Shown here: positions 5,178-59,968 of the stretch, piece by piece
Layout of the letters: every line of letters begins with the position of its first letter
Position numbering within the stretch: position 1 is the first letter of the stretch
Source of the DNA: a bacterium
GTDB taxonomy: Bacteria > Cyanobacteriota > Vampirovibrionia > Gastranaerophilales > Gastranaerophilaceae
DNA length: 64,000 nucleotides
Assembly (NCBI GenBank): GCA_017941035.1
Contig: JAGAXG010000038.1
Location: 129-64,128, forward strand
Direction of reading: 5' to 3'
Program-made: the position numbers and the translations under genes
Notes under the pieces: model-generated
What the model saw: only the letters and a program-made list of their open reading frames with translations
What the model was told of the DNA's origin: nothing
Databases searched by the model: none

Positions 5178-6404
5178 TTATTTTACACAAAACGACATAT
5201 AACCCCAAGCGTAGCGGCCGGTGGAAACTCTGCCAGTTGCCGAATTAGTGAAGTAGCGACCAGATGCATTAGTTGTACCGCTAGACTCTCTGTTACTCCA
5301 AATGCGAGTATAAGAAGAACCTAAACCGGAAAATGTTGTACCTAATTTTGCCGTGTTTAAAGGTGCATCATATTGATCGTTTCCTATTGCATTTTCCGGT
5401 GCATCATATAAATAGGTCGCAATTGCCGCTAAATCTGCTGAAGTAGCAAGATGGCCTCCTGAATCTTTACAATTCATCATCGCGCCTGCCCAATAATCGC
5501 CTTTAGTTAAGCAATTATCGCTCGTACAACATCTTTGTATATTGTATTTTGTCTTATATTCAGATTTCACTTCCCAAGTTCCATTATTATTTGTACAATA
5601 ATCATCTCTATATAATGGAGTCGGGATTTCAGGTTTAGTTATCTTTAAATCCGCAAAATCTATCCAGCCTAAACTCGCTCCGTTAAATCCGATTACATCT
5701 TTCCCAAAGCGATTAGGGCCTTTACTCCCGTTTAAATCTATTATCCCTTTTATACAACTCGTTGTATTTGATCGAGCATTCTCTTTTACTCCGTTATATT
5801 TTACCGCATCAGGATCACTCACAGGACAATTCTTATTCCAGCTAAATATCATTGGTGTTCCATCGCCCAATACTATCCCTGCAACATCTGTATAATCATC
5901 CTTATTTACATGCAAATCCCCGCCATTTTTTATGTTTGATACTAATACATCTTCTTCATCTGTTTTAATTCTACTGTATGGTAAGCAGTCTGTTAAATGA
6001 TCCTTATCGCAAATCGTCACTATCTTTAAATGTTTTGATAATGCCTGCGCAAATTCATAACTCGGATTTGCTCCTTTATAATATGGCCCGATGCCGTATT
6101 CTATATTTAATAAATCTGTTCCTTTAGATAGTTTGCGCTCAAAAACTGCTATTTTGTTTTTGGTTACTGTGTCATTTATTTTTGTTAGTAATAAAGGAAG
6201 AGTTAAAGCAGATACAACTCCTATTATAACTAAGGCAATTAGTGTCTCAGCTAAAGTGAAAGCAACATGCCTTTTACCCTCTCCTGTCACTTCGAGACAT
6301 TCCCCCCATAGGGAGGTAAAATTTTCTTTTATATTTCCTGATTGAAGGAGATTAGCTAAAAATGCCCCCCCCCCGAAATTGGCTCTGCGTCTGCATTTTA
6401 GCAT
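5178..6404 (-). CDS. pilin-like protein (class III signal, FTLAE) fused to a C-terminal lectin-like domain; paralog of 58868-59968
   Basis: It carries the AFTLAETLIALVIIGVVSALTLP prepilin-type motif. It shares long blocks with 58868-59968 (LSKGxDLLNIxxGIGPYY, LKIVTIC, VLGDGTPM, CPVSDPD, DLNGxKGPNxFGKD, GDYWAGAMxxCKDxGGHL). The C-terminus W..A...C...GGHL.T..L ... FCVK resembles the DUF1566/CLec pattern. The ATG at 6404 has a GGAGA SD at 6411-6415, and the leader is an unusual 48 aa. Confidence 0.8.
   Translation of the reverse strand: MLKCRRRANFGGGAFLANLLQSGNIKENFTSLWGECLEVTGEGKRHVAFTLAETLIALVIIGVVSALTLPLLLTKINDTVTKNKIAVFERKLSKGTDLLNIEYGIGPYYKGANPSYEFAQALSKHLKIVTICDKDHLTDCLPYSRIKTDEEDVLVSNIKNGGDLHVNKDDYTDVAGIVLGDGTPMIFSWNKNCPVSDPDAVKYNGVKENARSNTTSCIKGIIDLNGSKGPNRFGKDVIGFNGASLGWIDFADLKITKPEIPTPLYRDDYCTNNNGTWEVKSEYKTKYNIQRCCTSDNCLTKGDYWAGAMMNCKDSGGHLATSADLAAIATYLYDAPENAIGNDQYDAPLNTAKLGTTFSGLGSSYTRIWSNRESSGTTNASGRYFTNSATGRVSTGRYAWGYMSFCVK
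6365..6374 (-). repeat. G10 homopolymer (C10 on the + strand) inside codons 11-14 of the pilin-lectin gene; candidate slipped-strand phase-variation tract
   Basis: Read directly as aatgCCCCCCCCCCgaaatt. It is the only G/C run longer than 6 nt that I could find in the window. Confidence 0.85.
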
Positions 6405-6444
6405 AGTTTATCTCCTTTTATTCCGTTAATTCCTCTGTATTCTT

Positions 6445-6473
6445 ATTATAAACTATGTATTGAATTTTCGCAA
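6445..6473 (-). promoter_or_regulatory. sigma70-type promoter for the pilin-lectin gene (TTGCGA-N17-TATAAT)
   Basis: On the minus strand, TTGCGA lies at 6473-6468 and TATAAT at 6450-6445, with a 17-nt spacer. It sits about 40 nt upstream of the ATG at 6404. Confidence 0.5.
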
Positions 6474-18100: not shown

Positions 18101-18757
18101 ATGAGAGTTAAAAAATTTATAGCATTTACTCTGGCTGAAGTACTTATTACTATTGGGATATTAGGCGTTGTATCAGCAATGACAATACCTACATTGCGTT
18201 CCAGTCATATAAAAAAAGAACGTGGAGTTAAGCTTCAAAAGTTTTATTCTAAAATGGATAATGCCGTAGAACAGATGAATATTGAATACGGATCTTATAA
18301 AGACATGACTAAACCTGAGACATCAGATGATGCTTTCGATTGGTATATGCAAAGCATTGACCCGTTTATGGGACATGCTGAAATTGATAAAGATAATAAA
18401 ATAATATATTACATAGACGGTTCATCTTTAGGTTTATTCTTTGTTGGAGGATGTCTCGATGTAGAATATGATGTAAACGGAAACAAAAAACCTAACTTGA
18501 CTGGTTATGATAAATTTAGATTTTTATACTGTTTTACAGATACTGACAGACAAAATTGGTTTGGAAATAAAAATATATTCTTCGGAACTTACGGAGCAGG
18601 AATTAACACCTCTGCAATCACTAGAGATGATATGATAAAGAAATGCTCAAATAAAAGGGAAGGCAGAAATCCTGAAGAAGATGAACGAGCATATTGCACA
18701 AGACTATTGCAAAATGATCAGTGGGAATTTAAACAAGATTATCCTTGGAAATTTTAA
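18101..18757 (+). CDS. prepilin-type N-terminal domain protein (pilin/pseudopilin-like)
   Basis: MRVKKFIAFTLAEVLITIGILGVVSAMTIPTL, with the family motif DVNGNKKPNLTGYDKFRF. A GGGGA SD lies upstream. Confidence 0.8.
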   Translation: MRVKKFIAFTLAEVLITIGILGVVSAMTIPTLRSSHIKKERGVKLQKFYSKMDNAVEQMNIEYGSYKDMTKPETSDDAFDWYMQSIDPFMGHAEIDKDNKIIYYIDGSSLGLFFVGGCLDVEYDVNGNKKPNLTGYDKFRFLYCFTDTDRQNWFGNKNIFFGTYGAGINTSAITRDDMIKKCSNKREGRNPEEDERAYCTRLLQNDQWEFKQDYPWKF

Positions 18758-24831: not shown

Positions 24832-25500
24832 TTATCTTACATTCAAAAACTTATGAACTTGAGGAATTAAGCGCGTGTTTGGATATTTTAAAGTAAATTT
24901 TTCTAATATTTCACTACAAAATTCAGAACTGACACTCATTTTATCTCCAACCATTTTCGGCTGAAGTACAAGTTCCATATTATTTATATTCGCAATTTCA
25001 ATACAATTAGAAATTTCTTCCCGCGAAATATTTTCGTCAAAAACAATTTTTCCGAAAGTATTTTTATTTTTACAATGCGAGAAAAATTCTTTATGCTTTG
25101 CAATACAATCAAAACCAGTAGATGATTTTAATTTTATATCACCGGAAATTATATCGATAAAATTTGAAATTACATCTAATTCCTTTGGTAATGTTGCATT
25201 TGTTTCAAGATAAATTTTTGTTTTCCCTTGTAACATTGGTAAAAATTCTTTTAAAAATTTATATGATAATAATGGTTCTCCTCCAGTTAAAGATACGGAA
25301 TGAAAACTTTTTAAATCATATTCTGAGCATATTTTTTTGAATAGATTTTCAGGAGTATATAATTCTCCTTTTTGAAATTCTGTATCGCAGTAGTTGCAGT
25401 TTAAATTACAACCGCAAAATCTTATAAAAAGCTGTTTGTAGCCAACAACAGGACCTTCTCCTTGAATAGATGAAAATATTTCATTAATTTTAGCTTCCAT
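24832..25500 (-). CDS. queE: 7-carboxy-7-deazaguanine synthase (radical SAM)
   Basis: [13 protein letters not shown]...[16 protein letters not shown] motif. 222 aa. Confidence 0.85.
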
Positions 25501-26548
25501 AACCGAAATTCTTTCTCACATTATCTTTTGACAAATTTTTGAGCTGTTCATATAGCCTGATTTCATCTTCCGACAAATCATGAGAAAATTCAATACTAAC
25601 AGTTACAATTAAATCACCAATTTTACCATTTTTCTTTATACCCTGCTTCGCAATTCTAAATTTTTGTCCTGAACAAGTATTTTTTGGGAGCTTCAATTTT
25701 ATTACGCCATCAAAAGCCGGAATAGAAATTTCTTCTCCTAAAGCGGCTTCAAAAGGAGTAACCGGAACATTATAATAAATATTTAATTTATCAAAATGAA
25801 CTTGAGTTTTAGTTTCTATTTTTACGGTAATCATAACATCACCATTTGGTCCTCCATTTTTGCCTGAAGCGCCCTCGCCACGAAGCCTTAATTTAGCACC
25901 GTGCTTTACACCTTTTGGGATTGTAACCGTAATTCTTTTTGTTTCAGTAACTGTACCTTTACCTTGGCATCTTGAGCATTTATCACCATTTGTAAATCTA
26001 TGCCCGTTACACTTTGGGCATGTTTTTGTTGTTCTTATATTTACAATACGCTTACTACCTGTCATTACCTCATCAGGAGTTATTACAACATCGGTCGTAA
26101 TATTTTCTCCTTTTTGCGGTTTGTTAAAATCATTTTCCAATTTATTTTTCTTAAATTTTGCAAACCAATATTTCAAAATATTTACTTGTTTTTTATTTTT
26201 ACATTCTGCTTTTGAAGTTTTTTGCGATTTTTTAGCTTCTTCATTTTTAGGTTCTTCGTTTTTAGCTTCTTCGTTTTTAGGTTCTTCGCTATTATGCACA
26301 TCAGTAAAAGGCTTGAAAATTCCGTTTATAATATCATATTTTTTACGTTCAGCTTCATTAGACAGAGTTTCATAAGCTATTGTTATTTCTTTAAAAATTA
26401 TAACAGCCTCAGAAGATTTATTTATATCAGGATGATACTTACGAGCCAATTTCCTATAAGCAGATTTTATTTCCGATGTTTGAACATCAGTTTCAACTCC
26501 TAAAATTTCATAATAATTTTTTGTATTATTAAACACCATAACTATCAT
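25490..26548 (-). CDS. DnaJ-like J-domain protein with a reduced zinc finger and a K/E-rich repeat linker
   Basis: J domain YYEILGV...[14 protein letters not shown]. Only two CxxC pairs are present (CPKCNGHR...CSRCQGKG). The C-terminal DnaJ-type beta domain is present. [22 protein letters not shown] linker replaces the G/F region. Confidence 0.8.
26229..26288. repeat. four tandem 15-bp in-frame repeats (tttttagSttcttcN) encoding (K/P)NEEA/(K)NEEP units
   Basis: Read directly: tttttagcttcttca / tttttaggttcttcg / tttttagcttcttcg / tttttaggttcttcg. Confidence 0.9.
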
Positions 26549-26632: not shown

Positions 26633-27322
26633 ATGAAAAAATTAGCATTTACTTTAGCTGAAGTACTAATAACACTTGGTATAATAGGGGTTGTAGCCGG
26701 AATGACAATACCTACTCTTTCTTATAATTATAAAGAAAAACAAAACAGTGTAAAACTACAACACACATATTCAACATTAAAAAATGCAATGGCAACAGCT
26801 ATTGCCGAGAACGTAAATTCAGGGGTTAAGACAGTTAATAACATGACTCAAATGAAAAAATGGTACAATACTTTTATTACTCCTTACTTGAATGTTCTAC
26901 AAACATGTTACGGTGCAGAAACCGGATGTTGGGCAGAAGATACTTTCTATGCTCGCGGAACTAAAATTACTAAAAATCCAACTGGTGCTTGCGGAGGAAA
27001 TACAATATCTTTTGTTTTATCTGACGGAAGCTTTGTATGTATAGATGATTATCAGGGAGACCTTCTTGATTCGACATTCGGAGTCGAAAACGCTGTAAAT
27101 GAATTATCTATAATTTTTCGCATAGATATAAATGGAAATAATAAACCTAACCAATATGGAAAAGATATTTTTATTGCAATATTTAACGGAAATAAAATTG
27201 TTCCCGCCGGTAACAATAGATCTATAAGTGAAGTTAATTCTAATTGCAGTAAAAATGGTGACGGCTATTGGTGTATGCAAAAAGCTATAGATTCAGGGTA
27301 TAAATTCCCGCTTTATAAATAA
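26633..27322 (+). CDS. prepilin-type N-terminal domain protein (pilin/pseudopilin-like)
   Basis: MKKLAFTLAEVLITLGIIGVVAGMTIPTL, with the family motif DINGNNKPNQYGKDIFIAIF. An AGGAG SD lies upstream. Confidence 0.8.
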   Translation: MKKLAFTLAEVLITLGIIGVVAGMTIPTLSYNYKEKQNSVKLQHTYSTLKNAMATAIAENVNSGVKTVNNMTQMKKWYNTFITPYLNVLQTCYGAETGCWAEDTFYARGTKITKNPTGACGGNTISFVLSDGSFVCIDDYQGDLLDSTFGVENAVNELSIIFRIDINGNNKPNQYGKDIFIAIFNGNKIVPAGNNRSISEVNSNCSKNGDGYWCMQKAIDSGYKFPLYK

Positions 27323-29497: not shown

Positions 29498-30196
29498 TTA
29501 TTCATCAATTTTATTATCTTTTTTAGAATAATCCTGTGATATATAATCAGGATCAAAACCGGATAATTCAGCTAAACGATAACACGCTAAACCGTTGCCG
29601 TCGTGACAAGGGATTTGAACCCCTGAGAAAGTTTCTTTGTCATTAATATCTACCCAAGCTTCTGAACCTATATCACCGGCATGAATACCTTTATCTAAAT
29701 CATCTTCAGTTATAACTTGCACCTCGAAATAATCAACCCCGACAATGTTAGGTTCTTTTTTACCATTTAAATCAATTGATATAATAACGTCTCCTGTTTT
29801 ATAACAATCACAGCATACAGCTAAACCAACACCGTTTTTTAGTAAAACACTTCCGGAAGTATTTACAGCACCGCTACCGCCTTTGTAATTATAATATGAA
29901 TCAGAAAAACCATCATCATAATCATAAACTTTTCCTGTAGGATCGAAATTTAATAGAAATTTTTTAGAATCAGTACATATATTTGTATTGTTTAAATCAT
30001 TACTTCCGGCTTTAACAAGTTCATTTTGAACTATACTGTTTATATTTGTAACAGTTCCTCTTAATAAAGACATTTTTGATTTATTATTTGCATCTTTTAT
30101 CAATCCGGGAACTACCAAAATTGCTAAAATTCCTACAATTACCAAAGCAACGAGTATTTCACCCAATGTAAATCCTCTTTTTTTATTATTGATCAT
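29498..30196 (-). CDS. prepilin-type N-terminal domain protein (pilin/pseudopilin-like)
   Basis: The ATG at 30196 (MINNKKRGFTLGEILVALVIVGIL) lies 7 nt after GAGGA and is preferred over the ATG at 30250. Family motif DLNGKKEPNIVGVDYFEV. Confidence 0.8.
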   Translation of the reverse strand: MINNKKRGFTLGEILVALVIVGILAILVVPGLIKDANNKSKMSLLRGTVTNINSIVQNELVKAGSNDLNNTNICTDSKKFLLNFDPTGKVYDYDDGFSDSYYNYKGGSGAVNTSGSVLLKNGVGLAVCCDCYKTGDVIISIDLNGKKEPNIVGVDYFEVQVITEDDLDKGIHAGDIGSEAWVDINDKETFSGVQIPCHDGNGLACYRLAELSGFDPDYISQDYSKKDNKIDE

Positions 30197-30255
30197 AAAT
30201 TTATCCTCAATCATATTATTTATTTTAACATTATTTTTCAAAAAGTTCAATCTTC

Positions 30256-37709: not shown

Positions 37710-38489
37710 CTAGATAATATTTGCAAAGCTCAAAAAATATTGTTCAATAACATTCATCAGCATAGGTAAAATCCAAACCATAATTGCAGCTCCCAATACT
37801 GGCTTAAAAAGGAAACTTAATTGGAAAACATTTACCTGAGGAGCAGTTCTCGAAATTACGCCCAAAATAATATCCTGAGCCAGAGTAGCAAGCAAAATTG
37901 GAGATGCTATTTGCAAACCCATATACAAAGTATTTGAAGATAATTTAATTAATAAATCCATATTCGCGAGTTGAGCAAGCGGAATATGAACAGCATAAAT
38001 AGGGAATATTTCAAAGCTTCTCATCAATGCCTTAAAAAGCCAATAAATACCTCCCAGATTAATAAATATTAATAATCCCATCAAAGAAATTATATTACTC
38101 AAAATTGAAACTTGCCCTGAAGATGAAGGATCAAGTGTTGTAGCAGAAGTAAGCCCCATTTGCATATTAATCATTTCCGCTCCGCAATCTACAGCAATAA
38201 CTATAAGACGAGCCATATAACCAATTATTGCACCGACAACAATATTTAAAAATATTGATAATCCAAAAGAATCACATTGGCTTAAAACTTTTTCCGGCGA
38301 AAGCAAAGGTAGTATTGCACCAGTTATCAAAAGAGCGATAGGAATTTTTACAAGAGTTGGAATTTCTTTTCTCGAAAATACAGGAGCGAATCTGAAAAAT
38401 CCAAGCATTCTGGCAAGGATTAATGCTCCTGCCATAACGTAAGAATTAGCCATAGGAAATAATTTCATTAATTCTGCTGAAAAGTCCAT
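37710..38489 (-). CDS. fliR: flagellar/T3SS export-gate protein FliR
   Basis: 259-aa polytopic protein in the fliPQR position. The LARMLGFFRFAPVFS start is typical of FliR/SctT. Confidence 0.85.
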   Translation of the reverse strand: MDFSAELMKLFPMANSYVMAGALILARMLGFFRFAPVFSRKEIPTLVKIPIALLITGAILPLLSPEKVLSQCDSFGLSIFLNIVVGAIIGYMARLIVIAVDCGAEMINMQMGLTSATTLDPSSSGQVSILSNIISLMGLLIFINLGGIYWLFKALMRSFEIFPIYAVHIPLAQLANMDLLIKLSSNTLYMGLQIASPILLATLAQDIILGVISRTAPQVNVFQLSFLFKPVLGAAIMVWILPMLMNVIEQYFLSFANII

Positions 38490-38490
38490 T

Positions 38491-38979
38491 TTATCGTCCT
38501 ATAATCTTTTTAGTCTCTACAAAATCAGGTTTTGGCATCGGATTTTTTGAAGCTCTTGTGTATTTTTGTTTAGAATTTTTATCTACATAAGGAACTTTTC
38601 CAGGATGTTTCATAATATAATCTATATCATTGATATTTTTAAATTTATCTTTCATTTCTCCCGCAAAAGGTGTTGTATATTTATGATAACTTGCATCCAA
38701 GACAAAACTTTCACTTTGAGGAACAGTATTGAAAGCAAGCACTACACCTTCCTGAAATAAATTTGTTAAAAGTCTTATAAATCCCACTCCTCCAATTATA
38801 ATAACAAGAAAAACTCCCAAAATTTTCGGAGCAGCAGCAATTGTCTGCTCTTGAACTTGAGTAACAGCTTGCAAAATACCAACTACCAAACCTATACCAG
38901 CAGCTACTAATACGCAAGGCATTGAAATAGCCAACATTATTAAAAATCCTTTTGCCATATATTCTAGAAGTATTTCCAT
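38491..38979 (-). CDS. fliQ: export-gate protein FliQ with a C-terminal extension of about 73 aa
   Basis: The first ~89 aa match FliQ (GLVVGILQAVTQVQEQTIAAAPKILGVF). The frame then continues 73 further codons, hydrophilic and K-rich, to a stop 1 nt before the fliR ATG. Confidence 0.8.
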   Translation of the reverse strand: MEILLEYMAKGFLIMLAISMPCVLVAAGIGLVVGILQAVTQVQEQTIAAAPKILGVFLVIIIGGVGFIRLLTNLFQEGVVLAFNTVPQSESFVLDASYHKYTTPFAGEMKDKFKNINDIDYIMKHPGKVPYVDKNSKQKYTRASKNPMPKPDFVETKKIIGR

Positions 38980-39008
38980 AATTTAAGACCTCATAAAATT
39001 GTAAAACA

Positions 39009-39641
39009 TCAGTTGTAACTCGATACCAAACCCTGAACAATCAAAGCCCATCCGTCAACGGCTATAAATATCAATAATTTAAACGGCATAGATATAATTG
39101 TCGGGGACAGCATAAACATACCTAAGGCAAGTAAAATATTTGCAACGACCAAATCCAATATAATAAATGGTACAAATATTATAAAACTTATTTCAAAAGA
39201 AGTTTTTAATTCACTTATAATATATGCAGGAGCGACCTCCCAAACAGAAATATCATCCGGAGATTTAGGTTTTGTTTTATGCGTCATTTCTACAAAAAAT
39301 TCCAAATCCCCTTCACGGGTCTGTTTTAACATAAATTCTTTTAATGGTTTTGAGCCTTCATTTATAGCTTGAACAATATCATGATTTTTTTGATAAGGAA
39401 TAGAGCCCATTTCGTACATTTTTTGGAATGTACTACCCATTGTATAAAAAGTCAAAATCATTGAAAGACCTATAATTACCATTGCCGGAGGCACCTGCTG
39501 AGTTCCCATTGCAGTTTTTAGCATTGAAAACACAATAACAAAGCGCAAAAAACTTGTCATTGAACAAAAAACGAACGGTAACAGCGAAAATACCGACATC
39601 ATTACTAATATTTGTAATACAGGGTTAAGAGTTTGATCCAT
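39009..39641 (-). CDS. fliP: export-gate protein FliP
   Basis: FVIVFSMLKTAMGTQQVPPAMVIIGLSMILTFYTM matches the FliP signature region. Confidence 0.9.
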   Translation of the reverse strand: MDQTLNPVLQILVMMSVFSLLPFVFCSMTSFLRFVIVFSMLKTAMGTQQVPPAMVIIGLSMILTFYTMGSTFQKMYEMGSIPYQKNHDIVQAINEGSKPLKEFMLKQTREGDLEFFVEMTHKTKPKSPDDISVWEVAPAYIISELKTSFEISFIIFVPFIILDLVVANILLALGMFMLSPTIISMPFKLLIFIAVDGWALIVQGLVSSYN

Positions 39642-39650
39642 TATACTTCC

Positions 39651-40157
39651 TTACATACGATTTATTTTATTTGCCATTTCTCTCATTGTAGAAAATTCAT
39701 ATTCTTCTTTTTGCTGCTTTTGTTTTTCATAATTTTTGGAATTATAAGAACTTTTTCTTTTAAAACCTAAATTATTTTGATTTGATATAACTTCAAAATG
39801 AATTTTATCATCTTTAGTTTTTGATAATTCTTCAGCTGAACTATACTGTGGAATTTCAGTTATTACAGTATCAAAATCTTTTATATTCTTCTCTTTTTGA
39901 ATTGATTTTTCTTCTAATTTAGATATAAGAGTTGTTTTATCGACATCAGAAGCAATTAAAAATCTTTCACTTCCTGCCCTAATAATCATAAGCGATTTTC
40001 GTGGATTTATGCTCAATGTTTCTTCTACAAATAAATTTTGAGAATTTTTTATCCCTAAAGTTCCATTCATAACTTTTTTATAAACAAAAAGAGCACAAAA
40101 TATTAATCCTGACATCGCAAGTGTATAAACAGTAAAATTTATAATATAACCACCCAT
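39651..40157 (-). CDS. fliO: FliO-like single-pass membrane protein
   Basis: An N-terminal TM segment, the block SLMIIRAGSERFLIASDVDKTTLISKL, and the position immediately upstream of fliP. Confidence 0.5.
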   Translation of the reverse strand: MGGYIINFTVYTLAMSGLIFCALFVYKKVMNGTLGIKNSQNLFVEETLSINPRKSLMIIRAGSERFLIASDVDKTTLISKLEEKSIQKEKNIKDFDTVITEIPQYSSAEELSKTKDDKIHFEVISNQNNLGFKRKSSYNSKNYEKQKQQKEEYEFSTMREMANKINRM

Positions 40158-40168
40158 TATTAACCTCT

Positions 40169-41383
40169 TTATAAATTCTCATCTTCTAGTTCAAAATCAC
40201 TGTAATCAAAGTCTTCTTCGCCTTCTTCTGATTCTTTACCTTCATTGTATACTTCTTCCGAATCATTGTACTCTTCTTCATTTGCTTGCTCAGATTCATA
40301 AGATTCGTCTTCGTTCACGTTTTCATCTGATATGTCAGAGGATTGATCGCTGGAAATATTATCATTCCCAGCTATTATTTCAGTAATTTTAACGCCATAG
40401 CGATCATTTACAATTACCAACGAACCTTCCGCAATAGGCTTGCCCTCGACTTTTAATGTAACATTATTATTATATAATGATGCAATATCCACTACCAAAC
40501 CTTTTTCAATACTCTTTAAATCACCCAAACTGATTTTTACAGAATCAAGTTCCCCAATCATGTCCACTTCTATACTGTCCCATAAATTTTTACTTTCGGG
40601 CATAATATCATTTCCTCCAAAATTATTTTCATTATCAGGTACTAATAAATCCATATTCGGATTTACATTTATAGTCATTTCTTCTCCTAAAATATTTAGA
40701 GAAAGACTTTCCAAATCGCTATCTTCAAAAACAACAACATCCTCTTTTTCAAGATTTTTTAAATCATACATAGAAAAACGAGTTTTCCCTATTGTAATCT
40801 TTCCGCTAACTTCACTTTGGGTGAAATCATCTTTTGTAAATTTATCATCAGCAGACTCTATCATTTCCGGACTCAAAAGAGCAAACGGTAAGGTTACAAT
40901 AAATTTACCTGTATCTTTTACATTTTCATCAAGATCTTTTAAAATAAAAGTCAGATGTATCATGTCAAAATTTGTTCTTTTTATTTGAGTAGAATCAGGC
41001 TGATTTATATACTGTTTTAGTATATCGTACATTTCTCCGTTAAATGTCGTTATAATTTTTGCTTCCAATTCTGAAATATTATTTATATTGAATTTCTTAT
41101 TAGATTTACCTAAAATTTTACTAAGAATAATGTCCAAAACTTTTTCAGTTAACCGGAAAAACATATCATATTCTTGATCTATTTTTATTTTTGTAACAAA
41201 ACAGTATTCATCCTTTAAAAGACAATTTATATTTTTACTCAAACCAATAAACTCTAATTTAAAATTCTCAGAAAAAAAATTATCATAAGCATTCTGAACA
41301 ACAGGCGGAAATTTTTCTGAAAACCAGTTATACTGTTTATACAATTCTTTTGTAGATATTGAATCTTCAATATTTGCACTCAT
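40169..41383 (-). CDS. FliM/FliN-type switch/sorting-platform protein with a SpoA domain and an acidic C-terminal tail
   Basis: C-terminal SpoA/FliN motif SVKISLGDLKSIEKGLVVDIASLYNNNVTLKVEGKPIAEGSLVIVNDRYGVKITEI. An earlier SpoA-like segment is present (KITIGKTRFSMYDLKNLEKEDVVVFED). The last ~70 aa are D/E/S-rich. Confidence 0.7.
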   Translation of the reverse strand: MSANIEDSISTKELYKQYNWFSEKFPPVVQNAYDNFFSENFKLEFIGLSKNINCLLKDEYCFVTKIKIDQEYDMFFRLTEKVLDIILSKILGKSNKKFNINNISELEAKIITTFNGEMYDILKQYINQPDSTQIKRTNFDMIHLTFILKDLDENVKDTGKFIVTLPFALLSPEMIESADDKFTKDDFTQSEVSGKITIGKTRFSMYDLKNLEKEDVVVFEDSDLESLSLNILGEEMTINVNPNMDLLVPDNENNFGGNDIMPESKNLWDSIEVDMIGELDSVKISLGDLKSIEKGLVVDIASLYNNNVTLKVEGKPIAEGSLVIVNDRYGVKITEIIAGNDNISSDQSSDISDENVNEDESYESEQANEEEYNDSEEVYNEGKESEEGEEDFDYSDFELEDENL

Positions 41384-41948: not shown

Positions 41949-43184
41949 TTACATTCCCATATAAGATGCAAATAATGGTAAATATAATGCAGAAGCAAGA
42001 GTCAATACAATCGCACCAATTACAATCAACATGACCGGTTCAATCATTTTTGTCATTACGTCTATAATTGTATCTAATGCTTTATCAATATAGCTGACTG
42101 CTTGTCCTAGCATGTCACCTAAACGACCTGATTGTTCACCCGTTGCAATCATAAACAATATCATTTTTGGAATAGTTCTTGTAGCTCTTAAAGCAGCTGA
42201 TAAATGTTGTCCCTGTTGAATCCTGACAGTTGCTTCTTCCACTTTTGTCTCTAACGTATGGTTAGTTAATGTCAAAGTCGCAAGATATAAGCATTCTAAA
42301 ATAGGGACTCCTGCATCATAGGCAACTTCCATAACCGCCATGAAATTCGCGAAATTCGAAAATTGTATCAATTTAGATACTAATGGAATTTTTAATGATA
42401 ATTCATCTATTTTCCACTTTGTTGGGCGCCACTTAAATAAAAAGGTTACTACTGAAGTTACTACTATAAAACCTAAAGGTATAGAATACCAATTCTTTTT
42501 AAGAAATATACCCATGTCCATTAACTTTTGAGTAATCCATGGCAATTGCATACCCATTGAATCAAACATTTCCTTGAACACAGGGAATACAAACACAAGC
42601 ATGACTATTACAATAAATATCGCAAGTAAAATTACAAATACTGGATACATTAAAGTACCTATAACTTTACTTCTTATAGCTGATTGTTTATTCAAAAGTT
42701 CTAACAAACGATCCAAAGTTTTTTCAAGTTCACCTGAATCTTCACCCGTTTTCACAAGTCCAATATAAACCTGCCCAAATTGATCAGGATATTTTGCAAT
42801 AGTTCCGCCTAAAGTACCACCATTCATAATCTGACGACGTAATTCAGCAGCCACTTGTCTAATTTTTAACTTCGCAGCATCATTTTCAATAAACAATAAC
42901 GACTCAATTATAGGAATACCGGCAGCAGCCAATATTTGAAGAGTTGAAGTAAAATCTATTTGTTCTCCTAAACCCAATTTCGGCATTTTTCCATCTGCAA
43001 TACCCTTTGTATTTGATTTAGATTTTTGATTTACAGCGTAATTATTTTCTTCAACTATATTAGTAACAATAAACCCGAGTTTTTTTACTTCACTTCGGGC
43101 AGAACGCATGTCAGAAGCTTCTACTTTTCCTTTTACTATTTCATTTGTTCCGTTTTTGTAAGCCGTATAATTATATATCGCCAT
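41949..43184 (-). CDS. pilC: type IV pilus/T2SS platform protein (PilC/GspF family)
   Basis: 411 aa with two GspF-type repeats (GEDSGELEKTLDRL and ATGEQSGRLGDMLGQ) and three TM regions. Confidence 0.9.
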   Translation of the reverse strand: MAIYNYTAYKNGTNEIVKGKVEASDMRSARSEVKKLGFIVTNIVEENNYAVNQKSKSNTKGIADGKMPKLGLGEQIDFTSTLQILAAAGIPIIESLLFIENDAAKLKIRQVAAELRRQIMNGGTLGGTIAKYPDQFGQVYIGLVKTGEDSGELEKTLDRLLELLNKQSAIRSKVIGTLMYPVFVILLAIFIVIVMLVFVFPVFKEMFDSMGMQLPWITQKLMDMGIFLKKNWYSIPLGFIVVTSVVTFLFKWRPTKWKIDELSLKIPLVSKLIQFSNFANFMAVMEVAYDAGVPILECLYLATLTLTNHTLETKVEEATVRIQQGQHLSAALRATRTIPKMILFMIATGEQSGRLGDMLGQAVSYIDKALDTIIDVMTKMIEPVMLIVIGAIVLTLASALYLPLFASYMGM

Positions 43185-43191
43185 AAACTAC

Positions 43192-45225
43192 CTACTCACC
43201 CGCTAAACCCAATACTCTAACAAATTCATCTATTGATGTTGAACCTTCTATTATATGCTTATAGCATGATAAATTTAAAGTCGTCATGCCATTTTTTACT
43301 GCACTTTCTTCTATTTCCAAATCATGCGCACCTTGAGCGATTAATTTCTTTATTTCCCTTGTTATAGGCATGATTTCATATACACCCATACGACCTTTAT
43401 AACCTTGGAATCCGCATCTGCTGCATCCAACAGGTTTATAAATTGTCGTATTCATCAATTTTTTTATATATTCTTCATTTTGAGTAATTTTCATTGCCTC
43501 TTCTCTTGTAGGATTATAACCCTCTTTACAATGAGGACATAGTTTTCTTACAAGACGTTGTGCAATTACACCTGACAAAGTAGAAGAAACTAAATAATCT
43601 TTTGCTCCCATTTCAATCAAACGAGTAACTGTAGCTGCAGCTGAATTCGTGTGAACTGTACTCAAAACTAAGTGACCGGTTAATGCCGCTGATATTGCGG
43701 TTTCTAATGTTTCATAATCACGGATTTCACCGACTAATATAATATCAGGGTCCTGACGCAGTATTGCTCTCATACAAGACGCAAAAGTAATACCTGCTTT
43801 TACGTTTACTTGAGATTGATTGATACCGTCCAACTTAATTTCAATAGGGTCTTCAATAGTAGTTATATTTACAGATTCATCATTTAGACTCTTTAAAATA
43901 GAATAAAGAGTCGTTGTTTTACCTGAACCGGTAGGACCTGAGGTAAGTATAATTCCATTTGGACATGATATCATTTGAGAAATTTTTTTTATATCCTCTT
44001 TGTGAGCACCATTTAATACTATCTCTTTATCTCCTGATTCTAAACTCACAGCAGGGGCTAAAATACGAATTACAACCTTTTCTTTCCCTGAAACAGGCAG
44101 CGTATTTATACGAAAATCATATGTATAATCATTATACGTTAGTGAAAAAGTTCCATCCTGCGGTCTTCTTTGTTCAGCAATATTCATTCTTGACATTACC
44201 TTAAAACGCGTAATGACAGATATCTCTGACTTCTGGGGGATATCAAGAACTTTTTGAAGCATACCGTCTTTTCTGTAACGTACAATGTAACCTTTTAAAC
44301 GTGGTTCTATATGAATATCAGAAATTTTACTATCAATAGCATTGGTTATTATCTGATTTACAAACTTTGCAACTGATCCTGTTGAATCTTGTAATTCTGC
44401 ATCAACCTGTTCCCAAAGAGTAGTTGTTTCATCAGCATCAACGTTTTCTTCTTTTATTTGTTCTATAAGTTCTTCTGTTTCTTTTTTAGCTTTTGAAAAG
44501 AATGCTTCAATCGATGACCTAAACTCATAATGAGTCATTAAAATCTGTTTAGGATTCAAACCTGTTAAATAAATTATTTGCTTTAATACATCGGCTTTTA
44601 CAGGTTTTACAGCACCTATAAGCAATGTTTTACCATCTGAAGATATAGGAATTACCGAATTCGCCTTTATAAAATCTTCAGGTAAAATTTTTATAAATTC
44701 TCTCTGAGATGACAATTGTTCTTTTGTTACAAGATCAAAACCTGTCTGATCATGAAGTGCCTCTTTCAACTCATCTAAAGAAATTAAACCCATCTCAAAA
44801 AGCATTGAACCAATAGGAACATGTTTTTTCTTTGACTCAGCCAAAGCATTTAACAATTGTACTTCTGTAATCTTGCCTTTAGCAATTAATATATCGCCTA
44901 AACGTTTATCTTTGTTAGCTTTTCTTGATTCTTCATCTACATGAGCTAATGGTGAATTTTCTAAATCTTCTTCAGAAATAAAACCTTTCATTAAATCTAA
45001 CAAATCATCAGAACCTACTAACATAAATTTAATAGGATTTTGATAATAAACTTTTAAAACCTTATTTACTTCATCTTTATTTGAATTTTTTGATACCGCA
45101 ACAAATAAAAAATTCTGCTTAATATTAATGGGGACAAATTGGTACTTCCCCATTAAACTTGAATCAATATCATCTATAATTTTTTTATCTATACTATTTT
45201 TTAGTCTTAATATTAATGCATTCAT
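43192..45225 (-). CDS. pilB: type IV pilus/T2SS assembly ATPase (PilB/GspE family) with two N-terminal T2SSE_N-type domains
   Basis: Walker A GPTGSGKTTT, Asp/His boxes, and the tetracysteine CPHC...CSRC motif. Confidence 0.92.
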   Translation of the reverse strand: MNALILRLKNSIDKKIIDDIDSSLMGKYQFVPINIKQNFLFVAVSKNSNKDEVNKVLKVYYQNPIKFMLVGSDDLLDLMKGFISEEDLENSPLAHVDEESRKANKDKRLGDILIAKGKITEVQLLNALAESKKKHVPIGSMLFEMGLISLDELKEALHDQTGFDLVTKEQLSSQREFIKILPEDFIKANSVIPISSDGKTLLIGAVKPVKADVLKQIIYLTGLNPKQILMTHYEFRSSIEAFFSKAKKETEELIEQIKEENVDADETTTLWEQVDAELQDSTGSVAKFVNQIITNAIDSKISDIHIEPRLKGYIVRYRKDGMLQKVLDIPQKSEISVITRFKVMSRMNIAEQRRPQDGTFSLTYNDYTYDFRINTLPVSGKEKVVIRILAPAVSLESGDKEIVLNGAHKEDIKKISQMISCPNGIILTSGPTGSGKTTTLYSILKSLNDESVNITTIEDPIEIKLDGINQSQVNVKAGITFASCMRAILRQDPDIILVGEIRDYETLETAISAALTGHLVLSTVHTNSAAATVTRLIEMGAKDYLVSSTLSGVIAQRLVRKLCPHCKEGYNPTREEAMKITQNEEYIKKLMNTTIYKPVGCSRCGFQGYKGRMGVYEIMPITREIKKLIAQGAHDLEIEESAVKNGMTTLNLSCYKHIIEGSTSIDEFVRVLGLAGE

Positions 45226-45235
45226 TTTTATTATC

Positions 45236-47134
45236 TTAAAGGGCTATCTCATTATCCACAGCATCTTCAGTATCTACTAATATCTGAGGAGTTAACATAA
45301 TAACCATTTCTTCTTTTGCTTTAGAAGTAGATGTACTTCTAAAGAACATACCCACTACCGGTAAATCACCTAGTAAAGGTATTTTTGAAACAGACTTAGT
45401 TTCAGATTCCTGAATCAAACCACCTATAACAAGCGTTTCACCATCCTTTATTCTAACGCCTTTTAAACTCAAACTACGTCTTGCCAACAATGTAGCTTGA
45501 ATATCACCGTTTATATCTTCTAATTTTTCACTAATAGTATTATATTCAGGTTCTATATCAAGAACAATATATCCGTCAGGACTGATAAACGGAGTTATTG
45601 TGACATTAATACCGTTATCACTTTCAATATCATAATCACGCTGAACCTGAGAAGATCCGCCACCTGTTGAATCAAGATATTGAGAAGTAACTTTTGACAC
45701 ATAATCAGAAGACAAATCAATTGTAGATTCTTGACCGCTTGTCAAAAGAACTCTTGGATTAGCAAGAACACGGCCTTTACGATTAGTTAAAATATAATTC
45801 ATTGCATAGGTTAACTGACTTGAAGAACCCCATCTTGAATATGTGTTACTATCCTTTGAGGAATCCATTGTATAACCGCTTCCGGAGAAAAATATCGGGT
45901 GTTCCGCGTATGTTCCCGTATTACCGTTTGCAGCATTGAATGAAAAATTCTTACTCAAATAAGTCCAAGTATTACTAAACGATTTCATACCATCTTCATT
46001 TAAAGAAATTATTTGAACTTCTAAATATGCTTGCGGAGATTTTTTATCATTTTGGGCAATATAATCTCTAATCATTTCGATTTGAGAACTTGAACCGCCA
46101 ATAATTTGAATAGTACCCAAAGTAGGGAAATACACTACGCTCATATTTTTAAAAGGTAAAGCTGAAATTTCTCCACCGGACATATTTTGATCAATAGAAC
46201 AAGCTAATGTACCTCCTCCAACAGCTATACCATCTCCACCGCCTGAAGAAGAACCTCCAGAAGAACTTGAACTACTTGAAGATGAATTCCTGCTTGATGA
46301 AGATGAACTTCTGCTTGAAGAACTTGAACTGCTTGATGAGGAAGCAAAACCGGTCGGTGCACCTTTTATACTTGCGGCTCCGCCAGTTGTATTACCGCTT
46401 TTTTTATTTCCATTAACGGATGGTAAAAAAGTAGAACAAACTAAATCCGCCATTTCTGCAGGTGTAACATGATTAACTTTGAATGTTGTAATTGAAGGTT
46501 TTTTATCAAATTGTTCTACTATTCTTTGAGCCAAAAGAGCGTCTGATTTAGTACCCATAATAATTAACTCATTTGTTGCCGGATTCACAGACACAACAGG
46601 TTTTGAAGAAACCCCGGGAGTTATACCTGAACCTTTCTTAAAGAAATTTGAATTCAAAAAAGTTGCAAGAGAACTTGCACTAACATATTTTACAGGGATT
46701 AAAATAAGATTTTTAGCCCCGGAAGATGAAATCTCCTCATCACCTGAGCCTATAATTAAAGTATTGGCTTGAATATCATAAGAAAGCTTCGTAGTTGAAA
46801 TTACAAGGTTTAGAGCTTTTTCTAATGTAATATTTACAAGATCCATAGTTACAGTACCACTGACCGAAGGAGAAAATATAATATTCATTCCTGCTTGATC
46901 AGCAAACATTCTCAATACTTGTTTAACATCTGCTTCTCTAAGGCTTAAATTTACGACAGAATTCGCATTGCCAATTTGCACATCAGAACCAACATCTAAT
47001 GATGTTATGCTTTGTTCTGACCTGAGCATAGGGCTATAATCAAGCCCCATAGCTAAAACTGCTGACGTATTCATAAAAAAGAACGATGTCAACATCAAAC
47101 TTGCAACTATTTTTTCTCTAATCTTATTTTTCAT
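45236..47134 (-). CDS. pilQ: secretin (PilQ/GspD family) with a Ser-rich insert
   Basis: C-terminal secretin motif VSKIPLLGDLPVVGMFFRS. The ATG at 47134 (MKNKIREKIVASLMLTSFFFMNTSAVLA signal) is preferred to the ATG at 47182. Confidence 0.85.
   Translation of the reverse strand: MKNKIREKIVASLMLTSFFFMNTSAVLAMGLDYSPMLRSEQSITSLDVGSDVQIGNANSVVNLSLREADVKQVLRMFADQAGMNIIFSPSVSGTVTMDLVNITLEKALNLVISTTKLSYDIQANTLIIGSGDEEISSSGAKNLILIPVKYVSASSLATFLNSNFFKKGSGITPGVSSKPVVSVNPATNELIIMGTKSDALLAQRIVEQFDKKPSITTFKVNHVTPAEMADLVCSTFLPSVNGNKKSGNTTGGAASIKGAPTGFASSSSSSSSSSRSSSSSSRNSSSSSSSSSGGSSSGGGDGIAVGGGTLACSIDQNMSGGEISALPFKNMSVVYFPTLGTIQIIGGSSSQIEMIRDYIAQNDKKSPQAYLEVQIISLNEDGMKSFSNTWTYLSKNFSFNAANGNTGTYAEHPIFFSGSGYTMDSSKDSNTYSRWGSSSQLTYAMNYILTNRKGRVLANPRVLLTSGQESTIDLSSDYVSKVTSQYLDSTGGGSSQVQRDYDIESDNGINVTITPFISPDGYIVLDIEPEYNTISEKLEDINGDIQATLLARRSLSLKGVRIKDGETLVIGGLIQESETKSVSKIPLLGDLPVVGMFFRSTSTSKAKEEMVIMLTPQILVDTEDAVDNEIAL
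46232..46345 (-). repeat. low-complexity Ser/Gly-coding region inside the secretin gene
   Basis: It encodes ASSSSSSSSSSRSSSSSSRNSSSSSSSSSGGSSSGGGDG using mixed AGY/TCN codons, with imperfect repeats of roughly 27 nt. Confidence 0.85.
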
Positions 47135-47162
47135 ATCTACACCCATATTACTTAGTTTAATA

Positions 47163-47927
47163 CTATCCTCGTCGTCCACCAAACCTATTTTTCAAATTGT
47201 AAATATCATTCTGGTTTTTAGAGAGTTCATCTTTGGAAAATAACTCTCCAACAGCAGCAGAATAAACATTTGACCCCATACTTACAGTAATCCAAGTAGG
47301 GTTGATTTTAACAACTTTATATTCTTGACCAATAATCTTATCCCCTATGCGAACAAGATAATCTTTTTGATCAACATTAATAATTGCCGAAGGACTTTGA
47401 GCATTATACATTATACCAACGACCTTAGTTTTGGTAATTTTTGAAGCATAAGAATTTTCACCGCCCAACTTCGTAGGAGGTACAGGCAAATTAAAACTGT
47501 AAGGACTTATATCATCAGGTTCTCTAATTGCTACATTTTGAAGTTTTTTTATCTTGGCAATTTCTGAATTGTAAGCATTAGCCTCAGCTATTGCTGAATT
47601 TCTTGCTTCATCATATGCTTGAATTTCATCAAACGGCATGAACGGATCAGCACGACCTACTGTCAAAACATCATATGATACCATTCTTCCTGAGCCTTGA
47701 GCTTCATCTTCAACATCTAATTCGACAGTTCTGGTATTCTCCGATGGAACATTAACAACTTCTCTTGAATGTCTGACAGGAGATTTTTTAGAATTTTTAT
47801 TAATCTTCTGCTCTCCACAACCGGATAACATAAAACCTGCAAGCAAAACTGATACAAGAAAGATAGAAAATTTCTTTAAATGTTTAAATTTATAAGTATT
47901 ATTCATATGATTTGTATATTTTTTCAA
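47163..47927 (-). CDS. PilP-like lipoprotein, first gene of the pilus operon
   Basis: Lipobox FMLSGC. The C-terminal block VVGIMYNAQSPSAIINVDQKDYLVRIGDKI...YKVVKINPTWITV resembles the PilP beta-domain. Confidence 0.5.
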   Translation of the reverse strand: MKKYTNHMNNTYKFKHLKKFSIFLVSVLLAGFMLSGCGEQKINKNSKKSPVRHSREVVNVPSENTRTVELDVEDEAQGSGRMVSYDVLTVGRADPFMPFDEIQAYDEARNSAIAEANAYNSEIAKIKKLQNVAIREPDDISPYSFNLPVPPTKLGGENSYASKITKTKVVGIMYNAQSPSAIINVDQKDYLVRIGDKIIGQEYKVVKINPTWITVSMGSNVYSAAVGELFSKDELSKNQNDIYNLKNRFGGRRG

Positions 47928-50285: not shown

Positions 50286-51014
50286 ATGAAAAAGAAAGCA
50301 TTTACATTACCAGAAGTATTACTAACAATCGGAGTAATCGGAGTAATATCAGCTATTACAATACCTCAATTAGTAATGAGTCAGCAAGCTTCTCAAGCAA
50401 AAGCAAGATTTAATACTGCATACTCAATGATTGCAAAAGCTGTTGCAGATATGGAAACAGATGAAGTTTCTACCGATCCTAATGACTATAAAACTGCCGG
50501 ATCTTTTTATAATGTATTCAAAAACTATTTCAAAGTTACCATAGATTGCGGAATTTATTCAGGAACTAAAAATTCTGATACTTGTGTAGTATCAACTACT
50601 GACGATACTGGTCATATTACAACTAATGAACAAGAATCAAATAATTATTTAACAAAAAAAGGAAATACGAAAGTAGATCATACATTACTTGATGATGGAG
50701 CTTTTGTTACTAATAATGGAATGCTTTTTATTATAGAGAACACAACTGATAATTCATTCGGGCTTTTAGTTTCTGTAGATATTAACGGTAAAAACAAACG
50801 TCCAAACAGATGGGGTTGGGACTTATTTACTTTTGAAATTAAAGATGGTGAAGTAATACCTGTAGGCGAGTCTGAAACAAGTTACAGTTCATGGAAAAAT
50901 AACCCTGCAAACTACTGTAATAATTCAACAGATAGCCCACACAATGGAGTAACATGCGCTTCTTTTGCTACGACAGAAAAAGATTATTTCAAAAAAACAT
51001 ATGGCGGTAAATAA
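50286..51014 (+). CDS. prepilin-type N-terminal domain protein (pilin/pseudopilin-like)
   Basis: MKKKAFTLPEVLLTIGVIGVISAITIPQL, with the family motif DINGKNKRPNRWGWDLFTF. An AAGGA SD lies upstream. Confidence 0.8.
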   Translation: MKKKAFTLPEVLLTIGVIGVISAITIPQLVMSQQASQAKARFNTAYSMIAKAVADMETDEVSTDPNDYKTAGSFYNVFKNYFKVTIDCGIYSGTKNSDTCVVSTTDDTGHITTNEQESNNYLTKKGNTKVDHTLLDDGAFVTNNGMLFIIENTTDNSFGLLVSVDINGKNKRPNRWGWDLFTFEIKDGEVIPVGESETSYSSWKNNPANYCNNSTDSPHNGVTCASFATTEKDYFKKTYGGK

Positions 51015-58867: not shown

Positions 58868-59968
58868 ATGAAATTAAGAGGATTCACTCTCGCAGAAACA
58901 TTAATCGCACTGGGGATTATCGGAATAATTGCAGCATTGACTTTGCCGACACTGATTACGACAATTTCAAATGTTGTAACAGAAAATCAAAAAGCGGTAT
59001 TCCAAAGAAAACTGTCTAAGGGTGCTGATTTATTGAATATAGATAACGGCATCGGACCATATTATTCTGATACTGAATCATTTGTAAAACGTTTATCTGA
59101 ACATTTAAAGATTGTTACAATTTGTGGTAAAGATAATCTTAAAAATTGTTTGACATATGATACAATTCAACAGAATGGAACAGAACCGTTCAATGTAGAG
59201 GACATTACAACAGATACTTTTACAGGATTAGCTGAAAATAAAGAGTATCTGGATGCTGCAGGATTTGTATTAGGGGATGGTACACCAATGATACTTACAT
59301 ACCAAAAAGATTGTCCTGTATCAGACCCTGATGAAGTAAAGTATTCAGGGAGTAAGAAAAATGCCATATCTAACCATACAAGCTGTATCGCAGGCTTTTA
59401 TGATTTAAACGGAGTTAAAGGACCGAACAAATTTGGTAAAGATATTGTCCCTTTTAATGGCGTCTCAGGTCTAAAAAATACTTGGATATCTTTTGCAGGA
59501 TTTAAGGTCACTACTCCTAAAGTTCCTAATCCTATAAAAACAGCAGATTATTGCGAACAAAACGGTAATAATTGGACATTAAAATCTGATTATAGAACAA
59601 ATTATAATATAAACAGTTGTTGTACTAATTCTGGGTGCAAAACTACAGGTGATTATTGGGCAGGAGCAATGATTGAATGTAAAGATATAGGTGGGCATTT
59701 ACCAACTGAGTCTCAATTAACAACTATTGCATCATATTTATATGATGACGGAAACTTAGCTTCTTATTCTATTAGGATAAATAAATCAAAATTAGGCCCT
59801 CTCGCTGGTTTTGATTTAGAATCCGGCGGAAGTATATATTTGTGGGGTACTAGAGATTCTGGTACTGATTATTACCGTCGCCATTTTGCTCGTAATTATA
59901 CTGATGATGATTATATGGATGTTCGTAAACAGTCATATTTAATGGCGCTTTGTATAAAAGGGGATTAA
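58868..59968 (+). CDS. pilin-like protein (class III signal, GFTLAE) fused to a C-terminal lectin-like domain; paralog of 5178-6404
   Basis: MKLRGFTLAETLIALGIIGIIAALTLPTL with a GGAGG SD upstream. It shares long blocks with 5178-6404. The C-terminal pattern is GDYWAGAMIECKDIGGHLPTESQL ... LMALCIKGD. Confidence 0.82.
   Translation: MKLRGFTLAETLIALGIIGIIAALTLPTLITTISNVVTENQKAVFQRKLSKGADLLNIDNGIGPYYSDTESFVKRLSEHLKIVTICGKDNLKNCLTYDTIQQNGTEPFNVEDITTDTFTGLAENKEYLDAAGFVLGDGTPMILTYQKDCPVSDPDEVKYSGSKKNAISNHTSCIAGFYDLNGVKGPNKFGKDIVPFNGVSGLKNTWISFAGFKVTTPKVPNPIKTADYCEQNGNNWTLKSDYRTNYNINSCCTNSGCKTTGDYWAGAMIECKDIGGHLPTESQLTTIASYLYDDGNLASYSIRINKSKLGPLAGFDLESGGSIYLWGTRDSGTDYYRRHFARNYTDDDYMDVRKQSYLMALCIKGD

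Follow-up and report, generated by a model that had tools for sequence, protein, structure and literature searches.

The DNA considered here is a stretch of 64,000 nucleotides (hereafter the window) from GenBank assembly GCA_017941035.1 (contig JAGAXG010000038.1, positions 129 to 64,128 of the forward strand), and the element of interest is a run of ten G residues early in a type IV pilin-like gene. Judged from sequence, the host is a gut member of the Gastranaerophilaceae (Melainabacteria); ClpB, encoded immediately upstream of the gene, shares 86–87% identity with ClpB of metagenome-assembled genomes (MAGs) labelled 'Candidatus Gastranaerophilaceae' and 'Cyanobacteriota'.

The gene is an open reading frame (ORF) at 5178–6404 on the minus strand, and its product is identical to NCBI MBP3821311.1, a 'type II secretion system protein [bacterium]' from a MAG with locus-tag prefix J6G99. 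The protein reads MLKCRRRANFGGGAF... and then ...GKRHVA/FTLAE; the 408-codon ORF begins MLKCRRRANFGGGAFLANLL and runs to ...GKRHVA/FTLAETLIALVIIGVV. The motif ...HVA/FTLAETLIALVIIGVVSALTLP is present, that is, a leader ending in alanine followed by a sequence of the F-x-x-x-E type, and a profile built from the family finds solved type IV pilins at their N-termini with E = 1e-4.

The G10 homopolymer lies on the coding strand at 6365–6374 (C10 on the plus strand), begins 31 nt into the ORF and covers codons 11–14 (GGG GGG GGG and the G of GCA). The window has a G+C content of 31.4%, and this is its only G or C run longer than 6 nt; the other runs of at least 6 are C6 at 6302–6307, within the same leader, and G6 at 12576–12581. 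Under independent, identically distributed and first-order Markov models, about 0.001–0.003 runs of at least ten G or C would be expected in the window. An earlier note, made from the letters alone, had singled out this tract, together with a GGAGA Shine–Dalgarno (SD) sequence, the ATG at 6404 and a TTGCGA-N17-TATAAT promoter, as a candidate slipped-strand ON/OFF switch, and all of these elements are present where it had placed them. The features of the locus, all on the minus strand, are as follows.

6445..6473, minus: sigma-70-like promoter, TTGCGA (6468–6473)-N17-TATAAT (6445–6450), agreeing with the consensus at 10 of 12 positions; it opens the cassette described below
6411..6415, minus: SD sequence GGAGA, 6 nt 5′ of ATG1
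6402..6404, minus: ATG1, the start codon as judged from its conserved leader peptide; in frame with the pilin at G7, G10 and G13
6394..6396, minus: ATG2, second frame, at a TGC codon where most paralogs have CGC; in frame at G9 and G12
6377..6379, minus: ATT, third frame, by frame analysis the only start-like codon open to the tract there (G11 state)
6365..6374, minus: G10, putative hypermutable poly-G tract; G10, G11 or G12 at the same locus elsewhere, with identical flanks
6261..6404, minus: coding region of the leader (class III signal peptide), 48 codons up to ...KRHVA, followed by F49 of FTLAE
about 6279..6344, minus: 66-nt in-frame leader insertion, QSGNIKENFTSLWGECLEVTGE..., from alignment, comparison with contig L005 and RNA folding
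6288..6290, minus: in-frame GTG inside the insertion, not conserved
5841..5927, minus: 87-nt gene-conversion-like patch, from comparison of the window with contig L001
5178..6404, minus: type IV pilin-like gene, 408 aa, with a pilin helix at the N-terminus and a large globular portion towards the C-terminus

Tract length at the clpB-adjacent locus and in its paralogs

The same locus (locus A) was retrieved from other metagenome assemblies by exact-protein look-ups and then with ClpB as an anchor. Its tract length varies among essentially identical strains, and of the three lengths seen only one is in frame. The window and L016 carry G10, L015 carries G11 and L001 (the same contig as L017) carries G12. 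Over 3,498 aligned nucleotides tract length is the sole difference among the window, L015, L016 and L017. L001 (ENA ERZ28655215) is syntenic with the window through clpB, the pilin gene, a blaI-like gene and radA, and across 8,362 nt the two differ by a 2-nt tract indel (G10 versus G12), by 15 substitutions that all fall in one 87-nt patch, and by nothing else. The stretch compared also holds two A8 runs, neither of which varies. An invariant tract among related strains, which the earlier note had named as evidence against a switch, was thus not what we found.

These lengths bear directly on the product. Translation of length variants of locus A yields the full-length ORF at G7, G10 and G13. 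The G11 variant gives MLKCRRRANFGGGGIFS and a stop after 17 aa, the G9 variant a 15-aa product and the G12 variant MLKCRRRANFGGGGHF and a stop; the hand translations of G9 and G11 given in the earlier note, in both of which the full-length product is lost, were correct. The stops encountered out of frame (OFF) are TAG or TAA, located two to three codons past the tract at locus A and as many as six past it at locus C (below). In loci A, B and C the products are 15–21 aa long in the OFF phases and 393–409 aa in the in-frame (ON) phase.

The 87-nt patch lies within the pilin gene, and its variant residues are found in paralogs P0002 and P0006. It looks like the product of paralog-templated gene conversion, on the pattern of these residues; among the loci compared none is an exact donor. 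Comparison could not be carried across species: in a related species with ClpB 93% identical (L020–L022), clpB is followed not by a pilin gene but by an unrelated 892-aa ORF on the opposite strand. Conservation of the pilin locus beside clpB therefore does not extend past the species, which left no ortholog elsewhere to compare. A scan of GTDB genomes with the family profile returned only two distant loci, in 'cyanobacterium' MAGs, which were uninformative on the tract, and exact-protein look-ups for the window protein, P0010 and P0007 gave no match. Two JGI metagenome matches to the cassette flanks with a variable gap (L009, L010) were rejected as chance matches.

At least eight pilin-like loci, including that of the window, have a common promoter, 5′ untranslated region (UTR), SD and leader cassette with the pattern CATAGTTTATAAT ... 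AAAGGAGAT ... TTTC-Gn. Eight loci have an identical −10 hexamer and an almost identical −35 hexamer, and it is at the −35 hexamer that similarity between loci sets in abruptly. The SD context AAAGGAG(A/G)T is kept in seven of the eight cassettes, the exception being the partial L018, which has AAAGGAAAT. The loci for which tract and frame were established are listed below.

Locus A: window and L016, G10, ON; L015, G11, OFF; L001, G12, OFF
Locus B: L005, in the same genome as locus A and about 6 kb away from it, G11, OFF, ending as MLKRRHRANFGGGGIFS and a stop
Locus C: L006, G12, and L007 and L008, both G11 (three samples), OFF
Locus D: L004, G5, ON
Locus G: L023, G5, ON
Locus F: L013 and L014, G6, in frame, but with ATA in place of ATG1
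Locus E: L011 and L012, GGAGGGGG, an interrupted tract (GGAG5), one base out of frame in both samples

At locus C, too, the tract is the sole difference over 2.7 kb and 1.8 kb in three assemblies. Of the loci whose DNA was compared, three (A, B and C) carry long tracts of G10–G12. When the tract is reset to G10, locus B yields a 409-codon ORF and locus C a 393-codon ORF; since the reset restores ORFs of 393–409 aa, the long-tract OFF copies are not decayed. The short tracts of loci E (GGAG5) and F (G6) are invariant between L011 and L012 and between L013 and L014, respectively.

The same spread of states appears at the protein level. Homologs called from internal methionines correspond to out-of-frame copies. 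Among members of the clusters at 90% identity or more, P0316 is an in-frame version of the locus C protein (FGGGGLLANLL) and P0318 is a locus D-type protein (FGGGRLLANLL), and P0317, another protein of the locus D type, from the J6G99 MAG, is called from an internal methionine. A further locus is represented by MQSQSQFRGGGG... (P0324), by MSGGGG... (P0054) and by internal-start calls (P0322, P0323). In the J6G99 MAG, locus A is ON and several paralogs are annotated in OFF-type forms.

Being present in several copies, the cassette behaves as a repeat and fragments assemblies, which accounts for the contig breaks at these genes; it may also be exchanged between loci. L018 (3026–3147) and L019 end inside a cassette directly after clpB, and the L018 variant at this position has GGAAAT for the SD and ATT ATA in place of ATG CTA.

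Start codon and leader

The comparisons indicate that ATG 6404 is the real start codon and that the tract is translated coding sequence, because the leader is conserved as a peptide, its indels are multiples of three and two paralogs lack any other start. The pattern MLKxRRRxNFGG..FLANLL..KKKxA/FTLAE is conserved among the paralogs, and in-frame copies differ in the leader region by 3, 6, 9 or 66 nt. In L004 and L023 there is no other in-frame start between ATG1 and FTLAE. Homolog leaders include MLKRSRRATFGGGAFLANLLGKKKKA/FTLAE (P0010), MLKRSRRTNFGGLLANLLDKKKNA/FTLAE (P0008, P0016), MLKGRHRASFWGTFLADLLDKQKSG/FTLAE (P0023) and others, and the prefix M[LSP]KRS[HR]RA[TS]F is retained in more distant pilin-like proteins. 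Translation starting only downstream of the tract, which would have spoken against a coding-phase switch, is thus not indicated; the evidence places the start upstream.

The earlier note had called the 48-residue leader atypical on two counts, of which one holds. The leader is indeed long, paralog leaders of the same type having 25–26 aa, and it has 48 rather than about 26 residues because of the 66-nt in-frame insertion, which is common only to locus A and paralog locus B (L005, about 3903–3968). Alanine at −1 is normal for the host's pilin-like genes, since the short leaders of the window's other pilin-like ORFs end in Ala or Gly. The insertion holds a CCTCCC-TAT-GGGGGG hairpin, the G6 run (6302–6307) and an SD-like AGGAGAGGG, and the differences between its copies at loci A and B are mostly non-synonymous.

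A pairing within the leader transcript can also be drawn. The SD region AAGGAGAT (6410–6417, minus strand) is perfectly complementary over 8 nt to ATCTCCTT (6345–6352, minus strand), which encodes the N-L-L immediately after the tract and is a motif retained in most cassettes. The predicted hairpin would enclose the tract together with the start codon, but with a z score of only −1.15 the fold of the leader mRNA gives no support to a structured regulatory RNA. An Rfam scan of the window found no RNA family, and a G-quadruplex role for the tract was rejected because four G runs in close succession are absent.

With ATG1, ATG2 and ATT, there is a start-like codon in each of the three frames 5′ of the tract. 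Tract length might then select strong (ATG1), weak (ATG2) or very weak (ATT) expression, with different cleaved leaders. Full-length ORFs from ATG2 have been called at two loci, in the G12 contig of locus A (P0001, MQTQSQFRGGGAF...) and at another locus (P0324), and the NCBI paralog entries P0054, P0192 and P0193 begin MSGGG(G)..., implying ATT as the start. Gene calls, however, are software choices rather than data, and such N-termini are annotation, not evidence of use; ATT is moreover a very weak initiation codon. ATG2 is missing at loci B, C, D, E and G and runs into a stop at locus F. It sits 15 nt from the SD core GGAG, a poor spacing, and ribosomes initiating at ATG1 would read across it. 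Because ATG2 is absent from most paralogs and so far from GGAG, we rate graded expression as a minority possibility and an unlikely one.

It is highly improbable that the tract affects only an upstream leader or mini-ORF, with the pilin always translated from the GTG at 6290 with the leader MTGEGKRHVA. This codon, to which the earlier note had drawn attention, does exist in frame, has GGGGGGA 10 nt upstream and was picked by the gene caller Prodigal in the G11 contig (P0312, 370 aa). It is not conserved, however, being GCG in locus B (L005), the only paralog with the same insertion, and the insertion-free paralogs have no internal in-frame start, which leaves ATG1 as theirs. The leader is moreover conserved at the peptide level and its indels keep to multiples of 3 nt, which likewise argues against this reading. 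Since the GTG is GCG in L005, a conserved leader-isoform switch or upstream-ORF coupling, the other roles that the note had allowed for the tract, is also unlikely.

Probable phase variation and its precedents

From these comparisons we consider it very probable that the G10 tract is a genuine slipped-strand ON/OFF contingency locus in a type IV pilin-like gene. The proposal made in the earlier note is supported by the occurrence of G10, G11 and G12 at one locus with identical flanks and by OFF paralogs with intact ORFs. Those features of contingency loci that can be read from sequence are found together here: a repeat in the 5′ coding region that is long enough to be hypermutable (about 8 or more for a G/C homopolymer), length polymorphism with constant flanks, the resulting frame shifts and a start codon upstream of the repeat.

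In the mechanism that we envisage, slipped-strand mispairing in replication would add or remove G residues. With G10 (or G7 or G13), translation from ATG 6404 would proceed through the 48-residue leader into the pilin; with G11 or G12 it would end after 16–17 codons. The portable cassette of promoter, 5′ UTR, SD and leader heads at least eight paralogous pilin-like genes, and each long tract would switch independently. Since several paralogs combine the common promoter with a separate long tract, the subsets of pilin-like proteins made in a population would keep shifting. Switching would presumably occur within a clone and be reversible, and the pilin would presumably be exported and cleaved by a prepilin peptidase; host immunity, phage or adhesion specificity could be the selective agent.

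Could the out-of-frame copies instead be pseudogenes of a decaying family, with the G10 of the window marking one intact copy rather than a reversible switch? Two loci have this appearance: both locus E, with its interrupted tract GGAGGGGG out of frame in both samples, and locus F, with ATA for ATG1, look locked. The long-tract OFF copies, by contrast, are free of any further lesion and the proteins they encode are the same from sample to sample. Strains that are otherwise identical also differ in whether one locus is in frame, and we give general decay a very small probability. Least probable of all is that the length differences are sequencing or assembly errors without biological meaning, for although homopolymers are error-prone and all the data are metagenome consensus, such errors would have to strike only G tracts of at least ten, at two loci in six assemblies, while all else at those loci, A8 and T8 runs included, stays constant over 1.8–8.4 kb (the 87-nt patch of L001 aside), the G5 and G6 versions of the cassette are stable and independent NCBI and ENA annotations show the same spread of states.

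Several observations nevertheless weigh against the interpretation of the tract as a pilin ON/OFF switch. The tract lengths come from metagenome consensus assemblies, some of which may share reads with the MAG of the window. The source samples are SAMN15830098, SAMN15830127, SAMN15830136, SAMN15830141 and SAMN15830142, with SRR12529206 and the runs underlying ERZ27256933 and ERZ27256935; no paper matched the sample accessions directly, and the label 'XIEF21' would fit the ruminant gut catalogue of Xie et al. (2021). Taken alone, the window protein scores 14.0 bits against Pfam N_methyl, below the cut-off of 21.2, and 13.7 against NCBIfam TIGR02532, below the cut-off of 16.3. A prepilin peptidase (PilD, Peptidase_A24) was not found among the 20 window ORFs scanned, which are not all of its ORFs; pilus genes including pilD have been reported in a related Gastranaerophilus genome (PMC5877343). 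The OFF states, finally, may be leaky through ATG2, which is open at G9 and G12, through ATT at G11, or through slippage of RNA polymerase, to which long homopolymers are prone, on tracts of G10–G12.

The textbook cases of slipped-strand contingency loci come from a few cultured pathogens (Neisseria, Haemophilus, Campylobacter, Helicobacter and Bordetella), and the mechanism proposed here is a known one. Our literature searches found no report of phase variation by simple sequence repeats in Melainabacteria/Vampirovibrionia, and what sets the present case apart is the host lineage, the protein class (pilin-like, with a class III leader) and the family-wide cassette.

The pilC1 and pilC2 genes of Neisseria gonorrhoeae and N. 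meningitidis resemble the present genes in that each encodes a type IV pilus-associated protein and has poly-G in the 5′ part of its coding sequence, where frameshifts switch the protein ON or OFF. Their tract ranges from G9 to G15 between strains, and the variation is presented as poly-G translational phase variation in the passage of PMC5320596 that cites Jonsson et al. (1991). Neisserial PilC, however, is a pilus tip or assembly adhesin with a Sec-type signal, whereas here we deal with a pilin-like protein with a class III leader; and pilC is present in two copies in a proteobacterial pathogen, in contrast to a family of at least eight with a shared promoter–leader cassette in a gut Melainabacterium. 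The opa genes of Neisseria carry their repeat in the leader-coding part of the gene. Its many surface-protein paralogs each switch independently by a 5′ repeat of their own, as is proposed for the loci described here, and the variable parts of opa, which recombination has made mosaic, invite comparison with the 87-nt patch. The opa repeat is the pentamer CTTCT, distributed over 11–12 paralogs (PMC5320596), and Opa proteins are outer-membrane beta-barrels, whereas the present repeat is a homopolymer and the proteins are pilin-like.

Campylobacter jejuni and Helicobacter offer the likeness of an AT-rich genome (about 30% G+C) in which long G or C runs are otherwise absent and mark phase-variable surface-structure genes. 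In AT-rich Campylobacter, G/C tracts of at least 8 are the standard phase-variation device (PMC8355987), as they are in Neisseria, and the poly-G/C contingency genes of C. jejuni and Helicobacter typically carry G8–G13 (PMC8355987, PMC2823697). Those genes are mostly scattered single loci for glycosyltransferases, flagellar or capsule modification or restriction-modification, and not, as here, a pilin family with a common cassette. In Haemophilus influenzae lic1 and lic2, the CAAT repeats lie behind ATGs placed in different frames, a product can be made in more than one phase of the repeat and graded expression has been proposed for lic1. Start codons in more than one frame 5′ of the repeat are thus shared with the window locus; the repeat of lic1 and lic2 is, however, a tetranucleotide, and here the second ATG is found in only some paralogs and is poorly placed with respect to the SD.

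A broader scheme can be put forward only tentatively, and we think it possible rather than likely. A portable promoter–UTR–leader–poly-G module may have been moved and homogenized by recombination among about a dozen pilin-like genes and, combined with paralog-templated gene conversion in the variable domains as suggested by the 87-nt patch, might provide an uncultured commensal Melainabacterium with a Neisseria-style system of ON/OFF and antigenic variation of type IV pilus proteins; loci with both ATG2 and ATT might have three expression levels. The clustered conversion patch hints at such a pilus variation system in the animal gut.

If the tract is a switch, an uncultured non-photosynthetic cyanobacterial relative from the animal gut diversifies its pilus proteins stochastically. 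This would imply strong fluctuating selection, whether by host antibody, pilus-binding phage or changing glycan targets. Phase variation would also explain why gene callers and NCBI annotate family members as truncated, 'partial' or with odd start codons. It can be detected purely from public metagenome assemblies, and the approach could be applied systematically.

The pilin-like protein and other genes of the window

The AlphaFold2 model of the protein (mean predicted local distance difference test score, pLDDT, 81) predicts a long N-terminal helix of the kind typical of pilins, at residues 51–103, followed by alpha/beta domains; over the C-terminal 160 residues the pLDDT is 94. Foldseek with the full-length model gave no significant match. 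With the C-terminal domain, the best match was the C-terminal domain of Bdellovibrio Bd2740 (probability 0.95, E = 0.02), and entries of the CTLD, Link and FGE types appeared only at probabilities of at most 0.2 and E > 0.3. The window protein has no match to a C-type lectin Pfam domain. With so weak a similarity to the CTLD fold and no Pfam match, we do not endorse the label 'pilin-lectin' that the earlier note had given to the gene.

Other features of the window that touch on pili, or that may be of interest to those working on this lineage, are listed below.

41949..47182, minus: type IV pilus or type II secretion system (T2SS)-type machinery by Pfam, comprising a GspF/PilC-like protein (T2SSF, E = 4e-43), a PilB-like ATPase with MshEN (T2SSE, 5e-125) and a secretin (Secretin, 5e-39)
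37710..41383, minus: flagellar export genes (FliN-like, FliO, FliP, FliQ-type and FliR-type), directly adjoining the pilus/T2SS-type genes
18101..18757, plus: pilin-like ORF
26633..27322, plus: pilin-like ORF
29498..30250, minus: pilin-like ORF
50286..51014, plus: pilin-like ORF
58868..59968, plus: pilin-like ORF, identical to P0011 and with 50% identity to the protein studied here
60025..62394, plus: gene for a MutS2/Smr protein, which is not the mismatch-repair MutS1 (it is MutS1/MutL that bears on tract stability)
26229..26288: four copies of a 15-nt tandem repeat (TTTTTAGCTTCTTCG, 91% matches) within ORF 25490–26548 on the minus strand; it could be a length-variable coding repeat

The five further pilin-like ORFs have short conventional leaders, without the cassette and without a G tract. 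Distant members of the family include proteins with unusual N-termini (P0020, P0191 and P0278; P0006, P0033 and P0034). Some distant members have the AFTLAE motif duplicated, with 14–40 residues between the copies, and others carry long N-terminal extensions that resemble translated REP-type repeats (PCHPEERSDVGI, SLRGAKRRSNL). These odd N-termini suggest small insertions, or read-through by gene callers, 5′ of the pilin genes.

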